Positions 46,523 through 61,580 of a DNA stretch of 64,000 bases are shown piece after piece (positions within the stretch are counted from its first letter, which is position 1; each line of letters starts with the position of its first letter). A model generated the notes under the pieces. It saw only the letters and a list, made by a program, of their open reading frames with translations, did not search any database and had not been told where the DNA came from. The DNA lies in IMG/VR virus record IMGVR_UViG_3300005066_000001; one strand, 5' to 3'. A program made the position numbers and the translations under genes. The stretch comes from a virus.

Positions 46523-48781
46523 TTGATTAAAAGTGTAATCAAACGTAATGGTGAAGTTGTTGAGTTCGACCCAAACAAACTGAATAAGTGGGCTGAGTGG
46601 GCCAGTGAATCTAAAGTATCTTGGTCAGAAATTGTAATGAGTGCAACTAAGAAACTGTCCGATATGTGCTCTACCAAAGATATCCACAAGGCGCTTATTG
46701 ACACCTGTCTTGAAAAGGCAACATACCAACATGCAGATGTTGCAGCACGACTCCTTGTTGGGGATATCTATAAAGAAGTGTTTGGTGATTTTGTAGAACC
46801 ACCCTCTCTTTTTGAGTTCTATACAAAAATGGTAGAATCAGAAAAGTGGATTGACATGGAGTACGTTGAAGAAGAACTTGACGAAATTGATTCTTTTGTT
46901 ATCCACAATAAAGATTTCGGATACCAATACTCAAGCCTTCGTCAAATGTGTGATAAATACATGCTTAAAAACAAGCATACTGGACAACTGTTTGAATCAC
47001 CTCAGTTTATGTATGTGGGTATTGCTCTGGCGGCTATGCAGAATCAACCACAAGAGCGGAGAGTTGAAGATGTAATCAAACTGTACACCTATCTGTCAGA
47101 TTTGAAGATTAATGTTCCAACACCAACTCTTTCTGGTATGAGAACTAAGTTTAAAGGTTATGCAAGTTGCTGTTTGTTTACTACGCACGATACAGCAGAG
47201 AGTATTGAAGTAGGTAGCCACATTGCCTATATGATGACTTGCGCATCAGCAGGGATTGGTGGTTACATGCATACTCGTTCAGTAAAAGACCCTGTTCGTG
47301 GTGGCGACATTGTACACTATGGTAAACTACCTTACCTTCGGTACTACGAAAGTGCTGTCAAATCTACAAAGCAAGCAGTACGTGGCGGTAGTGCAACAAT
47401 GCACATTAATATTCTAGATCCTGAAATTGAAGATTTGATTCGTCTAAAACATCCAACTACACCGACACAAAAACAGATTCGTGGGTTGGATTATAGTAAC
47501 AGCATGAACAAACTGTTTATTCAGAAAGTTGCTAAGAACGAGCAGTGGATGTTAATTAGTCCATACTACGCTCAAGATTTGTATGATAAGTTTTATAGTT
47601 CAGATTATGAAGGTTTTGTTGAACTGTATGACAAATACGACAAATCAGATATTAAAGAAAAGAAGTATGTCAATGCTCGTGAATTGGCAATTGATATTCA
47701 AAAGAACTGGCGTGAATCTGGTCGAACATACAAGACATTTATTGACGAGATTAATCGACATACTCCATTTAAAGAGCCAATCTACAGCTCAAATTTATGC
47801 CAAGAAATCACGCTACCTACAAAAGGATTTAAGAGTATTGTAGATTTGTATGGAACAGATGGTGATGCAGGAGAAGTAGCATTGTGTTTTATTGGTGCAA
47901 TTGTAGCAGGACGTGTTACACAAGAAGAGTACGAAGATGTTGCTTATTATACAACCTTACTAATCGACAACACTATTGACTTGATGGAATACCCATTCCC
48001 CCAGATGGAAGTAACAGCAAAAGCTCGCAGAAGTATTGGTGTTGGTATTGTTAACCTAGCAAACTATCTTGCATCACAGAATGCAGGTTATACAAGCAAT
48101 AAAGGTAAACGTCTTATTCACGAACTAGCAGAAATGCACAGCTACTATATGCACAAAGCTTCTCTTCGTCTTGCAAAAGAAAAGGGTAATGCAGAATGGA
48201 TTGGTAAAACTAAATATCCTAAAGGTTGGTTGCCTATTGACACATACAATAAAAATGTAGATGATGTTGTTGATAGTTCGTTGGTATTTGACTGGGAACA
48301 GTTACGACAAGAAATTATTGAACAAGGCGGGTTGCGCAATAGTGTCCTTGAGGCACACATGCCCGGAGAAAGTAGTTCTCTAGCATCAAACACAACTAAC
48401 GGTCTTTATCCAATTCGTAGTGAACTGATTATTAAATCTTCGGATATAAACAAAATTCCAGTGTTTGTACCAGATTATGATAATTTGATTACTCGATACA
48501 GTTACGAGAAGTGTTGGGATGTCCCATTTAAGGACTTGGTAGACATGTATGCAATTGTTCAGAAGTTCTGTGGGCAAGCTATTAGTGCTGACTTTTATTT
48601 CGATACCTCTAAATATCAAGATGGTAAGATCGGTACGAAGGAAGACTTGACGAACTTGCTATATATGTGTAAGATGGGACTCAAGACTCATTATTACTGC
48701 AATACAAAATCCAAATCCGATGAAGTTGAGCAACTGACTTCGCAAGAATCTGGTTGTGCGTCAGGTGGTTGCAGTTTGTAA
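46523..48781 (+). CDS. nrdA: ribonucleotide reductase class I alpha subunit
   Basis: 752 aa; N-terminal ATP-cone (VIKRNGEVVEFDPNKL); C-terminal Cys pair (GCASGGCSL); nrdB downstream. TTG start after GGAGGAATAA. Confidence 0.7.
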   Translation: MIKSVIKRNGEVVEFDPNKLNKWAEWASESKVSWSEIVMSATKKLSDMCSTKDIHKALIDTCLEKATYQHADVAARLLVGDIYKEVFGDFVEPPSLFEFYTKMVESEKWIDMEYVEEELDEIDSFVIHNKDFGYQYSSLRQMCDKYMLKNKHTGQLFESPQFMYVGIALAAMQNQPQERRVEDVIKLYTYLSDLKINVPTPTLSGMRTKFKGYASCCLFTTHDTAESIEVGSHIAYMMTCASAGIGGYMHTRSVKDPVRGGDIVHYGKLPYLRYYESAVKSTKQAVRGGSATMHINILDPEIEDLIRLKHPTTPTQKQIRGLDYSNSMNKLFIQKVAKNEQWMLISPYYAQDLYDKFYSSDYEGFVELYDKYDKSDIKEKKYVNARELAIDIQKNWRESGRTYKTFIDEINRHTPFKEPIYSSNLCQEITLPTKGFKSIVDLYGTDGDAGEVALCFIGAIVAGRVTQEEYEDVAYYTTLLIDNTIDLMEYPFPQMEVTAKARRSIGVGIVNLANYLASQNAGYTSNKGKRLIHELAEMHSYYMHKASLRLAKEKGNAEWIGKTKYPKGWLPIDTYNKNVDDVVDSSLVFDWEQLRQEIIEQGGLRNSVLEAHMPGESSSLASNTTNGLYPIRSELIIKSSDINKIPVFVPDYDNLITRYSYEKCWDVPFKDLVDMYAIVQKFCGQAISADFYFDTSKYQDGKIGTKEDLTNLLYMCKMGLKTHYYCNTKSKSDEVEQLTSQESGCASGGCSL

Positions 48782-48795
48782 GTTGTAAACAAGAG

Positions 48796-48820
48796 GAGGC
48801 TTATAATGAGCCTCTTTTAT
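48796..48820 (+). terminator. rho-independent terminator after nrdA
   Basis: GAGGCT-TATAATG-AGCCTC then TTTTAT. Confidence 0.5.
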
Positions 48821-48832
48821 TATGGATTTGTA

Positions 48833-48861
48833 TTGACATTTTCAAATTAAGGTAGTATAAT
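48833..48861 (+). promoter_or_regulatory. consensus sigma70 promoter (TTGACA-17-TATAAT)
   Basis: ttgaca / ttttcaaattaaggtag / tataat, 32 nt upstream of the 48893 gene. Confidence 0.55.
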
Positions 48862-48892
48862 GCAAGTTCATAGTAAAAGGAGGTAGAATTAA

Positions 48893-49753
48893 GTGGCTGA
48901 AAATAAGAAGAAACAACAAAAAGCTGAAGATTTTATAGGTGAGACGTTTAATAATGGCAGATTAAGGGTTGTAGGAATTGCAGGTAAGGATAAATGGGGA
49001 ATTTCATTATTTAAAGTAACTTGTACTGAATGTTCTAAAGATCCTGAACTGTTTCCAGATGGTTATTTTGTTAGTACAAAAAGTAACCTGAAGAATGGGC
49101 GGAAACCCTGCGGTTGTTCTAAGTACGAATGGGAAGATTGGCAATATCTGATTCTTGCTCGTAGAGCAGGAGAAGAGAAAGGATTTGTTGTTCATGGTTT
49201 TGCAGAAGAGTTTCATGGGGCATATACAAAACTAAACCTAGAATGTTTAAAAGACAGTTATAAGTGGACTGCAAGTATTGATAATGTAATCAATAACGGC
49301 AGATGTTGTCCTAAGTGTTCTGGAAATGCCAGACCAACAGAACAAGAAGCCCTGCAAAAATGTATTGATATCTGCAAAGAAATGGATTACGATGCTGTTG
49401 GCTTTGTTGGTGGATATAAAAATAACCGTTCTCATTTTGAATACAATTGTAAGATTCACGGAAAACAGGGTGTCAGCTATCACAATTTTGTAAACAATGG
49501 GACACGTTGTGGTGGTTGTTGGAAAGATAGGCAAGTTGAATTACTAAGAGATAACGGAAACGGCAACGGATACTATCCCGAAAGAAAAGATGAAATTGAT
49601 TTTCTTTATGTCTTAGACTTCAATGGTAAATTCATCAAAGTTGGAAGATCTTTTATTGTTGACGATAGGATTAAGAAGTTAAGGTCTTTATCTAAAATTA
49701 AAAAGATCTATAAATTGAGGACCTTTTACAGCAACACATCAAGAGATTTATGA
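48893..49753 (+). CDS. Zn-ribbon/GIY-YIG-like homing-endonuclease-like protein, copy 1 (C-terminus frameshifted)
   Basis: Paralog of 60545-61543 (same N-terminus MxENKKKQQKAEDFIG, CxxC repeats, YVLDFNGKFIKVGRS GIY-YIG-like segment). Relative to copy 2, one extra T in a T-run near 49726 shifts the last ~45 codons into another frame (continues to 49893). Confidence 0.5.
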   Translation: MAENKKKQQKAEDFIGETFNNGRLRVVGIAGKDKWGISLFKVTCTECSKDPELFPDGYFVSTKSNLKNGRKPCGCSKYEWEDWQYLILARRAGEEKGFVVHGFAEEFHGAYTKLNLECLKDSYKWTASIDNVINNGRCCPKCSGNARPTEQEALQKCIDICKEMDYDAVGFVGGYKNNRSHFEYNCKIHGKQGVSYHNFVNNGTRCGGCWKDRQVELLRDNGNGNGYYPERKDEIDFLYVLDFNGKFIKVGRSFIVDDRIKKLRSLSKIKKIYKLRTFYSNTSRDL

Positions 49754-49921
49754 CTACGAACAAGAGCTACATACTGAACTACGAGAAAGAAATTTCCAAC
49801 ATTATGTAGATTGGAGTACAGAGTGTTTTGATAATGACTGTCAATACACTCTAAACAAACTTCTTGACAACTGTGATTTAGAAGAAGTAAAATAACATAA
49901 ATTGAATAAAGGAGGAAATAA

Positions 49922-51007
49922 ATGGCAGTTTTTAATTATGAAAATACTCAACGACACGAAGGGCACTACCCTCTATTCCTTGGGCAGCAACCAGCACTTC
50001 ACGATAGCATCAACACAACATACCCACAGATCTTTAAACTTTACAAGAAACTGAAGTCTGTTGACTGGAGTGAAGATGAGGTTGACCTTCAACAATCCCG
50101 CTTCGATTTCGAGAATTGCCCAAAGAATCAATACGAAGTAATGGTTAAAACTCTGGCCTATCAGTGGGAGCTTGATAGCATTGCTTCTCGTTCTATTGCA
50201 CCGCTTCTTGCACCATTTGTATCAAATAGTGAATATTGGGCAGCAGCTTCTTATGTATCGCAAAATGAAGTGCTTCACAGTTTAACATATTCCGAAATTG
50301 GTCGACAGTGTTTCAAGAATCCAGAAGTATTGTTTGCTGAAGTAGAGAGAAATGAAGTTACTGAACGTGGCTATGATTTTGGTATCGTGTTCAAAGAACT
50401 TGAACAACTTGGTGCTAAGTATAATCTTGGTCTTGTAGATAAAAATGACCCAATCGTCAAAGAAACTATTGCAAAAACATTAGTAGCCCTGTATGCTCTT
50501 GAAGGTATTAGTTTCATGGCATCGTTTGCTTGCACATTTGCACTAGCACAACAAGATTTGTTTATCGGTGTTGCCAAATTAGTTCAGAAAATTATGATCG
50601 ATGAACAATATCATACCCAACTTGATAAAATTGTTATTGAGACCCTACAAAACGACCCTGAATGGAAGCAAACATTTAAAGATATTAAACCTTGGACAAA
50701 AGAATATCTTGACAAGGTTGTACAGCGAGAGCTAAACTGGAACGAATACTTGTTCTCAGAAGGGCGTAGTATTCTGGGCTTGAACAAGCAACTATTGGAT
50801 GAGTGGGTTGTTTGGTCTGCAACCCCATTGTACAAAGTGTTGAATGTTCATAATGACAATGTAGTTCCCGAATCCCACCCAATTCCTTGGTTGAATGACT
50901 GGATTGACATTGACTCCCATCAAGTAGCAGCACAAGAAGCTACTATTGTCAATTATGTTTTGAATGCAACTAAAGATGACCTTGGGGATGATGAATTAGA
51001 GTTTTAA
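49922..51007 (+). CDS. nrdB: ribonucleotide reductase class I beta subunit
   Basis: 361 aa, directly follows the nrdA region; ferritin-like di-iron helices; acidic C-terminal tail (DDLGDDELEF) typical of R2. Confidence 0.6.
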   Translation: MAVFNYENTQRHEGHYPLFLGQQPALHDSINTTYPQIFKLYKKLKSVDWSEDEVDLQQSRFDFENCPKNQYEVMVKTLAYQWELDSIASRSIAPLLAPFVSNSEYWAAASYVSQNEVLHSLTYSEIGRQCFKNPEVLFAEVERNEVTERGYDFGIVFKELEQLGAKYNLGLVDKNDPIVKETIAKTLVALYALEGISFMASFACTFALAQQDLFIGVAKLVQKIMIDEQYHTQLDKIVIETLQNDPEWKQTFKDIKPWTKEYLDKVVQRELNWNEYLFSEGRSILGLNKQLLDEWVVWSATPLYKVLNVHNDNVVPESHPIPWLNDWIDIDSHQVAAQEATIVNYVLNATKDDLGDDELEF

Positions 51008-51433: not shown

Positions 51434-53212
51434 ATGTTCACTAAGCTAACGGAAAAACAACTTAATAATAAAATCAAATATATCCACCAATACATTGATG
51501 CAGAAAATGCAGCAACAGGGAGTAAATTTAATAGTAATTCAAATGTAACCATGAAGAATGTTACAACACTACAAGGAAGTTTGTACGAAGACTTCGGTAT
51601 TCAACTCCATCGTAAAACAACTTACGATAAAATTGAAGAAATGTTTGGTAAAGACCTTGCAGAACAGTGCCTTAAGGACCTAGAAGAACATCGTATTTAC
51701 GTACATGATGAAACTAATCCGGTCTTCGGCTATTGTGCCTCAATCTCTATTTTCCCAATGGTCACAGAAGGATTGAAAAGTCTCGGTGGAATGAGCAATG
51801 CACCAAAGAATATTTTTAGTTTTATTGACCAACTTTGTTCTACTGTTTATCTTGTTAGTGCTCAAATTGCTGGTGCAGTAGGTGTACCGGAAGCTTTAGT
51901 TTATGCAGATTACTATTTCCGTAAATCTTTTGGTAATAATTATCATGAAAATGAGCTAACAAAACAACTACTCCAAGGTTTGATTTATAAACTCAATGAA
52001 CCATCGGGCGCTAGGTCATATCAATCCCCCTTTACTAACTTTTTGATTTACGACAAATATTATTTTGAAGCAGTGTTCGGTCAAATGGTTTATCCTGATT
52101 TTACACAACCTGTTTGGAACAGTATTAGTAAACTTCAAAAATTGTTTGTTGAGACCCTAGACAAAGAACGTGATAACGGTATTATTACTTTCCCTGTTGT
52201 AACATTTAGTATGCTGACAGAGAATGGTAGCCCGAAAGATAAAGAGTACCACAACTATGCAGCACAACAATTGCACAAAGGAAATAGTTTCTTTATTTAT
52301 CTGAGCGATAACCCTGACAGTATTTCGAGCTGTTGCCGCCTTGCTAATAAAACTAATTTCAAAGAGTTTGCAAATAGTTCTGGTGTTGGTGGTGTTAAAG
52401 TAGGTAGTGTTGGTGTGATTACCATTGACTTTAATCGAATCTATCAGACAATGAACGAAAAAGAGATTAAAGAACAGGTTAAACGTGTTCATAAGTATCT
52501 CGCAGCACGTCGAGCGTTTATTGCAGAGCTTGATGATAAAGGTATGATTCCTATTTATAAAGCTGGGTACATTGAGCTTGATAAACTATACTCAACAGTG
52601 GGTCTTGGCGGTTTGGTGGAGGCTGCTGAATATCACGGTTATACTCCGATCCATAAAGACAAAGATTATATGAACTTTATGGAAAACGTGTTGGTTATGG
52701 TTGAACAGCTTAATTCTGAAGCACAAGAGTACTTTGGTTTCAAAATCAATGCAGAGCAAGCTCCACTAGAGTCAGCAGGGTATAAACTTGCACAATGGGC
52801 AAAAGAAGATGGTTTGAAAGTTAACCGTGATGTTTATACAAGCTATATGTATGTTCCGTCTGACAATACTAATTTTATGGATAAACTTATTGCTCACGGA
52901 AAACAACTTACATCTAAAACTTCCGGTGGTAGTGCAGCACACATTAATCTTGAAGATTTGTTGACAGAACAACAATATTATGCAATTATTGAAGCATCAG
53001 CACAACTTGGTGTGCCATACTTCTGTTTCAATACTAAAATGACTATTTGTAATGATTGTGAACACATCTCGAGGACAACAGATCGTTACTGCAAGAAATG
53101 TGGTTCATCGGACGTAGATTCCGCCACACGAGTGGTTGGTTATTTGAAACGAGTTACTAACTTCTCTTCTGCACGACAACAAGAAGAGTCAACAAGACAT
53201 TATGCAAAATAA
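51434..53212 (+). CDS. nrdD: anaerobic ribonucleoside-triphosphate reductase
   Basis: 592 aa; C-terminal zinc ribbon (CNDCEH...CKKCGS) followed by glycyl-radical motif TRVVGYL. Confidence 0.65.
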   Translation: MFTKLTEKQLNNKIKYIHQYIDAENAATGSKFNSNSNVTMKNVTTLQGSLYEDFGIQLHRKTTYDKIEEMFGKDLAEQCLKDLEEHRIYVHDETNPVFGYCASISIFPMVTEGLKSLGGMSNAPKNIFSFIDQLCSTVYLVSAQIAGAVGVPEALVYADYYFRKSFGNNYHENELTKQLLQGLIYKLNEPSGARSYQSPFTNFLIYDKYYFEAVFGQMVYPDFTQPVWNSISKLQKLFVETLDKERDNGIITFPVVTFSMLTENGSPKDKEYHNYAAQQLHKGNSFFIYLSDNPDSISSCCRLANKTNFKEFANSSGVGGVKVGSVGVITIDFNRIYQTMNEKEIKEQVKRVHKYLAARRAFIAELDDKGMIPIYKAGYIELDKLYSTVGLGGLVEAAEYHGYTPIHKDKDYMNFMENVLVMVEQLNSEAQEYFGFKINAEQAPLESAGYKLAQWAKEDGLKVNRDVYTSYMYVPSDNTNFMDKLIAHGKQLTSKTSGGSAAHINLEDLLTEQQYYAIIEASAQLGVPYFCFNTKMTICNDCEHISRTTDRYCKKCGSSDVDSATRVVGYLKRVTNFSSARQQEESTRHYAK

Positions 53213-59577: not shown

Positions 59578-60456
59578 TTGACTACAATCGCAGTAAAAGA
59601 TGGTATTATGGTAGGTGACGGTCGTTGTTCACTTGGTAGCACCGTAATCAAAGATGATATGGTAAAAGTCTTTTGGGTTAACAACCACTTGATGGGTGGG
59701 GCAGGACGAGCACGGTCTATCAGCACCTTTGCCCAATGGTTGCAGAAACACACAGATTACACAATTGTTAATCAAGAAGTTGGAGATCTTGTTGATTTGA
59801 TTCCGCCTGTTCTACAGGACGACGAGGAGTTTACGGCGTTGGTTTTGACTCCAGACAAACAAGTTTTGATGTATGATGGTAATGTCGCTCTTAATCTTGG
59901 GCACGATGTTCAAGCATCAATTGGTTCAGGTAGTGTATTCGCCCTTGCAGCCATGGATGCTGGTGCATCAGCAGAAGATGCAGTCAAAATTGCAATGAAA
60001 CGGGATGTTTATTCTGGTGGTGAAATCACTGTCGTTCAACTAGAAGAAGAATCTGAACCTATAACACGAGAAGTTGCAGAGAACCTTTCAAAAGACGAGC
60101 TGATTAACATGTTTTTCGGGGAGCAAGAATCCAGTGAAGCTGTCGTAAATAAAGAAACATGCACGATTGGTGTTAAGGAGTACGATGACAGTTTGATTCG
60201 TATTTATTCTTGGACAGATGATATTGTAGTGTTGTTTAATGAGGATGCAAGAGAATATATTTTTAAAATTGACAATATTGAATATGATATCAATGGAGAT
60301 TTTACACCAGCTTACTTTGTTGTTGACTCAGGATTTAGTACAGAAGAGTTTAGAAGCCTCTGTAATGATATGGATATACAATATTCACTGAACAATACCA
60401 GAGAACAACTTTCTTCTAAGATTATCAAAGAAATAAAATCAAAGATTACAAATTAA
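59578..60456 (+). CDS. HslV-like Ntn-hydrolase (proteasome beta-type peptidase) with ~115-aa acidic C-terminal extension
   Basis: N-terminus (M)TTIAVKDGIMVGDGRCSLGSTVIKDDMVKVFWVNNHLMGGAGRARSISTF aligns with the HslV start TTIVSVRRNG...GDGQVSLGNTVMK...GFAG...AFTLFE, including the Thr1 nucleophile. TTG start after GAAGGAGAAATTAA. Confidence 0.55.
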   Translation: MTTIAVKDGIMVGDGRCSLGSTVIKDDMVKVFWVNNHLMGGAGRARSISTFAQWLQKHTDYTIVNQEVGDLVDLIPPVLQDDEEFTALVLTPDKQVLMYDGNVALNLGHDVQASIGSGSVFALAAMDAGASAEDAVKIAMKRDVYSGGEITVVQLEEESEPITREVAENLSKDELINMFFGEQESSEAVVNKETCTIGVKEYDDSLIRIYSWTDDIVVLFNEDAREYIFKIDNIEYDINGDFTPAYFVVDSGFSTEEFRSLCNDMDIQYSLNNTREQLSSKIIKEIKSKITN

Positions 60457-60460
60457 ATAT

Positions 60461-60494
60461 AGCACAAGGAGCAGTTTGCTCCTTGTGCTATTTT
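60461..60494 (+). terminator. rho-independent terminator
   Basis: AGCACAAGGAGCA-GTTT-GCTCCTTGTGCT then ATTTT. Confidence 0.55.
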
Positions 60495-60544: not shown

Positions 60545-61543
60545 ATGACTGAAAATAAAAAGAAACAACAAAAAGCTGAAGATTTCATAGGTTGGAAAAG
60601 TAAAGATGGAAAACTAGAAGTTATTGGTATTATTGAGAAATCGAAGCATACCACTTTTAAAGTTACCTGTACGGAATGTTCCAAAGATCCTGAATTATTC
60701 CATGATGGATATTTTGTTAGTGTCAAAAGTAGTTTGGTTAAAGAAATCAAACCTTGTGGTTGTGGGAAAAATGTAAGATGGAGGGACTTTCAATATTTAA
60801 TATTAGCCCGTAGAGCATCAAAAGACAGGTTTATTGTTCATGGTTTTGTTGAAGGATTTAAAAATCAAAACACCAAACTAAACCTTGAATGTTTGAAAGA
60901 TGGGCATAAGTGGACTGCAAGTATTAATGATATTATTAATAGTGGCAAAGGTTGTTCAAAGTGTGCTGGTGTATATAGGCCAACAGAACAAGAAGCATTG
61001 CAAAAATGTATTGATATTTGTAAAGAAATGAGCTATGATGTTGTTGGTTTTGTTGGTGGATATAAAAACAACACTTCTCGTTTTGAGTACATCTGCAAAA
61101 TTCATGGAAAACAGAATGTTAGATATGGTAATTTTGTAAACAAAGGAACACGTTGTCGGGGTTGTGCTAAAGATGAAACCATTAGAAGATTAAGGGAAGA
61201 TGGAAATGGTAATGGATACTATCCCGAAAGAAAAGATGAAACTGATTTCTTGTACATCTTGAACTTCAATGGTAAATTCATTAAAGTTGGAAGGTCTTTT
61301 CTTGTTGATAAAAGAGTTGATGCTTTAAAGTCTATATCTAAAATCAAAAAGATTCACAAACTCAGAATATTCACAGCAACACATCAAGAGATTTATGATT
61401 TTGAACAAGAACTACATAACGAGTTACGAGAAAGAAACTTCCAACATTATGTAGATTGGTCAACAGAGTGTTTTGAAAATGATTCACTGTTCGTTCTCAA
61501 TAAATTTCTGGATAGTTGTGGTCTAGAAGAAATAAAACAATGA
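60545..61543 (+). CDS. Zn-ribbon/GIY-YIG-like homing-endonuclease-like protein, copy 2 (intact)
   Basis: 332 aa. CxxC pairs CTECSKD, CGCGKN, CSKCAG, CRGC; then YILNFNGKFIKVGRSFLVDKRVDALKS, a GIY-YIG-like segment. Paralog of 48893-49753. Confidence 0.5.
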   Translation: MTENKKKQQKAEDFIGWKSKDGKLEVIGIIEKSKHTTFKVTCTECSKDPELFHDGYFVSVKSSLVKEIKPCGCGKNVRWRDFQYLILARRASKDRFIVHGFVEGFKNQNTKLNLECLKDGHKWTASINDIINSGKGCSKCAGVYRPTEQEALQKCIDICKEMSYDVVGFVGGYKNNTSRFEYICKIHGKQNVRYGNFVNKGTRCRGCAKDETIRRLREDGNGNGYYPERKDETDFLYILNFNGKFIKVGRSFLVDKRVDALKSISKIKKIHKLRIFTATHQEIYDFEQELHNELRERNFQHYVDWSTECFENDSLFVLNKFLDSCGLEEIKQ

Positions 61544-61556
61544 TGTGATATATCTA

Positions 61557-61580
61557 GGTGCCCTTAGGGGCACCCTTATT
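61557..61580 (+). terminator. rho-independent terminator (palindromic, possibly bidirectional)
   Basis: GGTGCCC-TTAG-GGGCACC then CTTATTT. Confidence 0.55.

Follow-up and report, generated by a model that had tools for sequence, protein, structure and literature searches.

In phage T4, the spacer between nrdA and nrdB is occupied by mobE (Wilson and Edgell 2009, PMC2790892), a free-standing gene, lodged in neither an intron nor an intein, that is variably present and is predicted to specify an HNH enzyme. A second group of genes found next to those for ribonucleotide reductase (RNR) comprises the CapR/T5orf172 genes of ICP1 and the Plateaulakeviruses (Netter et al. 2021, PMC8096241; Barth et al. 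2023, PMC10448857), in which T5orf172 is a GIY-YIG subfamily domain and CapR a zinc-finger DNA-binding domain of the CxxC...CxC type. These genes occur in multiple copies, are variably present and are found at boundaries of sequence exchange, and in the Plateaulakeviruses they are abundant, clustered near RNR genes, and often frameshifted (PMC10448857). Homing by the ICP1-type genes has been stated to be experimentally unverified (PMC10448857), while their N-terminal part is related to PLE CapR, a DNA-binding repressor (PMC8096241). Membership of the T5orf172 class places them in the same superfamily as the GIY-YIG enzymes of T4, i.e. I-TevI and the Seg proteins (PMC10448857), which also consist of DNA-binding and nuclease modules, and of which I-TevI also represses through DNA binding alone.

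The gene described here was found in a 64,000 nt stretch of viral DNA (IMG/VR record IMGVR_UViG_3300005066_000001), hereafter called the window, the source of which is an uncultured Plateaulakevirus-like Aeromonas phage, with best DNA matches of 80-90% identity to members of the genus Plateaulakevirus. It has the same domain architecture as the ICP1 and Plateaulakevirus genes, shares 36-37% identity with the former and 68-75% with the latter, and resembles them in copy number, variable presence, location beside RNR genes, frameshifting, and association with a sequence-exchange boundary. There is no difference in kind between them, and the window gene represents an allele not listed before, its phage being uncultured. 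With mobE it has in common the nrdA-nrdB position, the free-standing state and the variable presence, so that the parallel to T-even phages drawn in an original prediction, made from the letters of the window, holds for position. It does not extend to homology, which was rejected because mobE belongs to the HNH family whereas the window gene is of the CapR/T5orf172 type; nor is the window phage itself T4-like. Among phages of this group, mobE has its true counterpart in vB_AceP_PAc (PAc), where an HNH gene fills the corresponding spacer. Compared with I-TevI, the domain order is reversed, the nuclease being N-terminal in I-TevI but C-terminal in the window gene, and the DNA-binding module consists of CapR zinc fingers rather than a helix-turn-helix. 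The reading frame of the window gene is interrupted by a single additional base, which most probably reflects a real and recent decay of a selfish homing-endonuclease gene.

The insertion site is flanked on the left by nrdA (46523-48781; RNR large subunit, 752 aa) and on the right by nrdB (49922-51007; small subunit, 361 aa), all features described here being on the plus strand, and the gene that starts at 48893 is a free-standing one between them, just as originally predicted. The nrdA gene of the window is uninterrupted and without an intron; its homologs on the contigs described below contain the ATP-cone, Ribonuc_red_lgN and Ribonuc_red_lgC domains and the copies in relatives are annotated as nrdA, while nrdB is identified by the Ribonuc_red_sm domain in contig annotation. 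The 1.1 kb cassette that fills the spacer (48782-49910) carries a hairpin, a promoter, a Shine-Dalgarno sequence, a GTG start codon and the broken ORF. Its 5' edge, directly 3' of the nrdA stop codon, is formed by a hairpin with a U-rich tail (48792-48823, the hairpin itself at 48792-48818), which has a folding energy of -14.8 kcal/mol (z = -3.84), a value matched by no shuffled sequence. The hairpin is retained in cassette-bearing phages with paired changes (AGGCT..AGCCT vs GGGCT..AGCCC), and a different hairpin is present in the spacer of phages with an empty site. It looks like an intrinsic terminator, in agreement with the terminator that had been predicted ahead of the gene. A terminator scanner placed the hairpin at 48792 on the minus strand only.

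Downstream of the hairpin is a sigma-70-type promoter, TTGACA-17-TATAAT (48833-48861), which matches the consensus at 12 of 12 positions, exactly as had been claimed for it. Orthologous cassettes have TTGACA-17-TACAAT, and the promoter is missing from empty-site phages. The idea that the cassette promoter is in itself special was rejected, since it is one of four perfect TTGACA-17-TATAAT sites in the window, and sites with at most one mismatch number 13, against 1.29 expected by chance; strong promoters of this kind are thus a general feature of the phage. The Shine-Dalgarno sequence, AAGGAGG (48877-48883), read directly from the DNA, lies 9 nt 5' of the GTG start and is conserved in the orthologs. 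A second promoter-like site, TTGACA-18-TAAAAT (49864-49893, 11 of 12 matches), is found within the 3' end of the ORF, facing nrdB; it is kept in four orthologous cassettes, and a 43-nt insertion in one of the contigs described below (L011) has duplicated part of it. No terminator was detected 3' of the cassette ORF in the window sequence.

As encoded, the zero-frame ORF runs from the GTG at 48893 to a stop codon at 49751-49753 and specifies 286 aa (48893-49753), made up of three CapR domains, the first ~45 residues of T5orf172, and seven out-of-frame residues (YSNTSRDL*). Pfam detected CapR (PF21817) in this product with E = 4e-47 in three stretches, and gave no match to T5orf172. When the frame is restored, T5orf172 is matched with E = 0.0056 (17.6 bits), a weak score below the cut-off of 20, and the intact paralog of the window (60545-61543, 332 aa, CapR x3 plus T5orf172, as established by alignment and Pfam) reaches 20.6 bits; in both, the C-terminal match to T5orf172/MUG113 is weak. 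At the family level the domain is clear, as all 30 aligned homologs match both CapR and T5orf172 (E <= 0.01; best E = 1.9e-6) and 23 of the 30 match MUG113, and the ancestral gene is therefore regarded as a member of the CapR/T5orf172 family; the window allele now specifies no more than roughly half of the T5orf172 domain. The gene also matched PHROG 681, 'endonuclease', with E = 8e-72. By tblastn, relatives were found in 353 phage records, most of which belong to phages of Vibrio (ICP1 among them), Salmonella, Escherichia and Aeromonas; a single Plateaulakevirus genome can have as many as 10 matching places.

Several features bear on the nature of the two modules. All 30 homologs keep the CapR cysteines C44, C47, C73 and C75 and their equivalents in the later repeats, and Y239, G251, R252, E289, H293 and N314, whose catalytic role is presumed, are likewise invariant in the family alignment. 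AlphaFold2, run with the 30-sequence alignment, modelled the CapR part with pLDDT 80-95 and the T5orf172 part with pLDDT below 50. The order of secondary-structure elements in residues 235-326 (two strands, helix, strand, helices) is compatible with a GIY-YIG alpha/beta fold, which has conserved Tyr, Tyr, Arg, Glu and Asn, but at the same pLDDT of below 50. The window gene lacks a canonical GIY...YIG motif and matched no solved GIY-YIG structure in sequence or fold: Foldseek of the model against the PDB gave no match at E < 0.001, and a sequence profile searched against PDB chains returned only chance-level matches to retinol-binding proteins (E = 0.22). No HNH family was matched in the Pfam search of the gene. 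A weak match to PHROG 559, 'HNH endonuclease' (E = 1e-10 to 3e-13), is confined to residues 5-226, i.e. the CapR region, and so does not indicate an HNH domain. Taken across the 30 homologs, there is firm ground for describing the gene as a putative homing endonuclease of the CapR/T5orf172 type, with T5orf172 assigned to the GIY-YIG superfamily. The predicted GIY-YIG/Zn-ribbon architecture can be refined: the putative nuclease domain is T5orf172, classed as a GIY-YIG subfamily, and the supposed Zn-ribbons are three CapR homology domains.

The reading frame departs after residue 279, where an ancestral TTT has become TTTT (49724-49727), as judged from alignments to the paralog, to four orthologs at the same locus, and to three contigs (L015, L012 and L011). 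The DNA alignment of the two paralogs contains a single-base gap at this site, 'GAGGACCTTTTACAGC' in the window against 'CAGAA-TATTCACAGC' in the paralog, and homology continues through the C-terminus to a common stop codon. By tblastn against the paralog, residues 1-279 are 69% identical in one frame and residues 276-331 are 80% identical in the next. The four orthologs read '...ATC-TTTACAGC' (ATC TTT ACA GC), compared to ACC TTTT ACA GC in the window, which identifies the extra base as a T within the run at 49724-49727. The extra T had been predicted near 49726, with a shift into the +1 frame, and both points were borne out; only the extent needed correction, since the stop codon of the displaced frame ends at 49895, not 49893.

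The displaced portion, made up of the final 55 codons of T5orf172, is found by translation in the +1 frame (49728-49895), where no stop codon intervenes before the ancestral TAA at 49893-49895. It contains the family-invariant residues H282, Q283, Y286, E289, Q290, H293, R297, W307, S308, E310, C311, F312 and N314. Compared with four relatives in its original frame, the segment has an omega (dN/dS) of 0.04-0.12 at dS ~1, values pointing to strong past purifying selection on a sequence that was evidently functional until very recently, and for this reason the frameshift is considered to be recent.

Near-identical contigs, recovered by way of the database protein P0001, its cluster mates, and an identical NrdB protein, provide an allele series. 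P0001 is the exact 286-aa product, with V as its first residue, while the 119 other database homologs among those listed are all full length (118 of 321-351 aa and one of 414 aa). Contig L010 (JGI 3300005076) differs from the window by 19 SNPs in 3.7 kb, none of them in the cassette, and has the same TTTT run. Contig L015 (Logan ERR13714764, 99.9% identity) has TTT and an uninterrupted frame, and encodes a protein identical at every residue to the restored one. Contig L012 (ENA ERZ1305919, 692x coverage, 99.92% identity over 8.7 kb) also has TTT but is interrupted elsewhere, by an additional AG after 49582; it carries G49731T as well, and its product is 241 aa long, the frame being lost at residue 229 rather than at residue 279 as in the window and L010. 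A fourth contig, L011 (Logan ERR11525782, 95% identity), is in frame at both sites, and its last ten codons are rewritten by the 43-nt insertion. The window and L012 show six differences, four of them within 49531-49731 (P = 0.002, with the whole ORF as target) and the other two outside the cassette. That +AG and +T might form a compensating pair (net +3) was considered and rejected, as no contig has both. Since near-identical contigs carry intact, +T and +AG alleles, two independent frameshifts have arisen from an intact ancestor in a population differing by ~0.1%. New to this study is the observation of one intact and two independently frameshifted alleles in backgrounds that are at least 99.9% identical.

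The same contigs bear on another reading, in which the phage itself has an intact gene and the additional T was introduced in sequencing or assembly. In favour of it, the change alters the length of a homopolymer by one base, an intact allele exists in a contig of 99.9% identity (L015), and reads may be common to the window and L010, since the assemblies of both come from JGI. However, L010 is a distinct haplotype, by virtue of its SNPs, and the extra T goes together with another derived change, G at 49531, found solely in the window and L010. The run is just four bases long. The window is otherwise base-for-base identical to the independent Logan contigs L014 and L016 and, outside the cassette, shows two differences from L012 in 8.7 kb, and the quality of the assembly is therefore judged to be high. 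An error is thus very improbable, and decay is preferred to it because a second, non-identical contig carries the same extra T. A scan of IMG/VR and JGI metagenome contigs with the 30-nt frameshift context, in either its TTT or TTTT form, returned no exact match.

Could the shift be made good during translation? The mRNA at the site reads ACC_UUU_UAC, and 3 nt separate its UUU codon from a GAGG on the 5' side. It thus recalls prfB-type and UUU_Y sites in combining a slippery P-site codon (UUU_U), able to re-pair in the +1 frame, with a Shine-Dalgarno-like element upstream (PMC5009743). A leaky or programmed +1 slip at such a site might yield a little of the full-length protein and so attenuate a toxic enzyme. 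UUU_Ynn has been called especially +1-prone in bacteria, even without a stop codon (PMC5009743), the downstream frame is fully open, and a +1 slip would restore exactly the protein of L015. In five long genes of the window, only 9 of 70 TTT codons precede a pyrimidine, a raw count that would fit avoidance of such sites. Against this, UAC in the A site specifies an amino acid and is common enough (46 TAC vs 80 TAT in five genes), the slow A-site codon of prfB-type sites is missing, and any gain of a single base in the homopolymer creates a site of this kind automatically. Nor is the site conserved, being absent from L015, L012, the 95%-identical L011, the four orthologs, the paralog, and the 119 listed homologs. 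The full-length product of a +1 shift would carry the junction peptide ...KLRTFTATHQEIY... at this position. A slip of this kind, leaky or programmed, is considered very unlikely, and at the level of sequence comparison a conserved programmed frameshift is ruled out, because near-identical intact and alternative alleles exist. A related idea, that the inserted T acts as an attenuating indel, giving mostly a CapR-only protein and a trickle of the ancestral enzyme through +1 slippage of a few per cent, is highly improbable. Slippage during transcription is known from sites with runs far longer than four nucleotides. The choice of decay over a programmed shift rests on the near-identical contigs, which carry either an intact allele or another frameshift. 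Decay had been one of three options left open by the original prediction, next to programmed frameshifting and sequencing error, and it is the contig alleles that single it out.

A further alternative accepts the frameshift as real but proposes that truncation was selected, with a nuclease-dead protein of three CapR domains being kept to bind DNA, either for repression or for protection of the endonuclease's own target. There are precedents in the satellite protein CapR, which is derived from such endonucleases, and in I-TevI, which doubles as a repressor. Both independent frameshifts, at residues 279 and 229, cut T5orf172 only and spare all three CapR domains, an outcome that such selection and neutral decay would both yield; the CapR region is the part of the protein that is modelled confidently and to which the PLE repressor is related, and the strong promoter and Shine-Dalgarno sequence are fully intact in all alleles. 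On the other hand, two events falling in the last third of a gene are expected by chance about once in nine times, and are too few to tell selection from neutral decay. Divergence among the alleles stays within 0.1%, which makes them exceedingly recent and gives no sign of a lasting truncated form, none of the 119 other homologs listed is truncated, and an intact allele coexists with the truncated ones. Selection for the truncated form is, on balance, unlikely.

Comparison with related phages supports the view that the cassette is autonomous, as the original prediction had suggested, and mobile, with its promoter travelling along. In Aeromonas phages 2L372D, 2L372X, 4L372D and 4L372XY the nrdA-nrdB spacer holds an orthologous cassette with the hairpin, the promoter and an intact gene of 332-335 codons, the closest deposited ortholog being ~81% identical in DNA to the window gene. 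The spacer is empty in phiA009, phiA019 and TS9, where it measures 53 nt and has the different hairpin mentioned above, while in PAc it is taken up by the unrelated HNH endonuclease gene of 217 codons (PHROG 953, E = 6e-80). Because the spacer holds a CapR/T5orf172 cassette, an HNH gene or nothing among these relatives, it is a hot spot for unrelated endonuclease genes in this phage genus. The paralog at 60545-61543 is an insertion too, being absent from phiA009 and phiA019, and its flanks are contiguous in phiA009.

Movement between genomes is also visible in L011, whose identity to the window is 97-100% between 48738 and 49737 and falls to only 79-93% in the adjoining parts of nrdA and nrdB. 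This pattern indicates that diverged genomes have recently exchanged the cassette and that a breakpoint falls within the nuclease domain; exchange boundaries of this sort have been described by Barth et al. 2023 (PMC10448857).

Decay of a selfish element, the favoured explanation, may be pictured as follows. If the gene behaves as other free-standing homing endonucleases of phages do, mixed infections would allow its intact protein to cut a cassette-free genome near the nrdA-nrdB junction, and repair from a cassette-bearing genome would then copy the gene into the cut site. The three N-terminal CapR domains would serve for DNA binding and the C-terminal T5orf172 domain as the putative nuclease. 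The one-base insertion removes invariant residues of the nuclease domain, including glutamates 289 and 291, and leaves the three DNA-binding domains in place. That the protein acts as a homing nuclease, where it would cut, and that truncation abolishes its function are all presumed here. The window allele would then belong to the degenerating stage in the life cycle of homing endonucleases, an ordinary stage for such elements, seen here while still polymorphic: the same phage population also contains the unbroken gene and another allele with a frameshift of separate origin.

For annotation, the locus is better described as a frameshifted CapR/T5orf172 homing-endonuclease pseudogene than as two hypothetical ORFs, and the nrdA-nrdB spacer is worth recording as a hot spot of unrelated endonuclease genes, as it is in T4. 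Beyond annotation the significance is small, as both the phenomenon and the family and phage genus have been documented before. The modest addition is a view of the homing-endonuclease cycle as it occurs in nature, and an allele series that may be used for testing the putative homing of T5orf172/CapR genes.

In the Logan contig L011 (ERR11525782), 95% identical to the window, the allele of the cassette gene between nrdA and nrdB has a 43-nt insertion near its 3' end (about 1525-1570 of that contig, placed after window position 49863), which duplicates the TTGACA-containing segment. The last ~10 codons are replaced through this insertion, giving the end ...DSNLVAGNFEEISC; it counts as a third lesion type for this gene. 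Two independent Logan assemblies (L014 and L016) showed 100% identity to the window, and the ends of both contigs fall at exactly window position 49814, within the cassette, probably because the adjoining segment is common to the paralogous copies or is strain-variable.

Of the 19 SNPs separating the window from L010 (JGI 3300005076), the contig with the same extra T, 15 were packed into 95 bp in the 5' part of nrdD (window 51669-51763), most of them at third codon positions, with distances divisible by three between them. In a sequence that is otherwise identical, this cluster has the appearance of a short patch acquired by gene conversion from a diverged relative. The record for nrdB of phiA047 (L009, 833-2000) gives two overlapping CDS, which suggests that this essential gene is frameshifted in the record, either truly or through assembly.

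Compared with phiA009 and phiA019, the intact paralog (60545-61543) is likewise an insertion. A hairpin with a 15-bp stem precedes it (60459-60491), and a terminator-like hairpin follows it (61557-61574); the paralog lacks its own strong consensus promoter. Immediately upstream of the paralog cassette is an ORF of 292 aa with a TTG start (59578-60456), of which N-terminal residues 4-59 gave a weak match to the Pfam Proteasome-subunit family (E = 7e-6).

Perfect TTGACA-17-TATAAT sites occur four times in the window, all on the + strand (28236, 48833, 51011 and 58727), and one of them is directly 3' of nrdB. When up to one mismatch was permitted, the whole window contained 13 such sites against 1.3 expected, with 11 of the 13 on the + strand, and the phage seems to depend strongly on consensus promoters of the host sigma-70 type. 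Across the window nrdA, nrdB and nrdD genes, 59578-60456 and 60545-61543, a pyrimidine follows just 9 of 70 in-frame TTT codons. This may mean that UUU_Y, a context prone to +1 shifts, is avoided, or it may be an ordinary bias in codon pairs.

The nrdA genes of phiA009, PAc and phiA047 (L002, L003 and L007) are split by ~238 nt without an ORF (758-971 in phiA009), at the equivalent of window position 47794/47801 and within the conserved motif ...SSNL|CQEI..., and their GenBank entries give the split gene as two CDS. Compared with Rfam, the interruption gave a full-length match to the group I intron model RF00028 (35 bits, E = 2e-7), below the gathering score of 50. The window nrdA is without the intron. 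The nrdA-nrdB spacer of PAc (Aeromonas phage vB_AceP_PAc; L003, 2047-2700) carries a gene of 217 aa, annotated as hypothetical and unrelated to the window cassette. Pfam gave no match for this gene, and the PHROG comparison assigned it to PHROG 953, 'HNH endonuclease' (E = 6e-80); one insertion site therefore serves two different endonuclease families.
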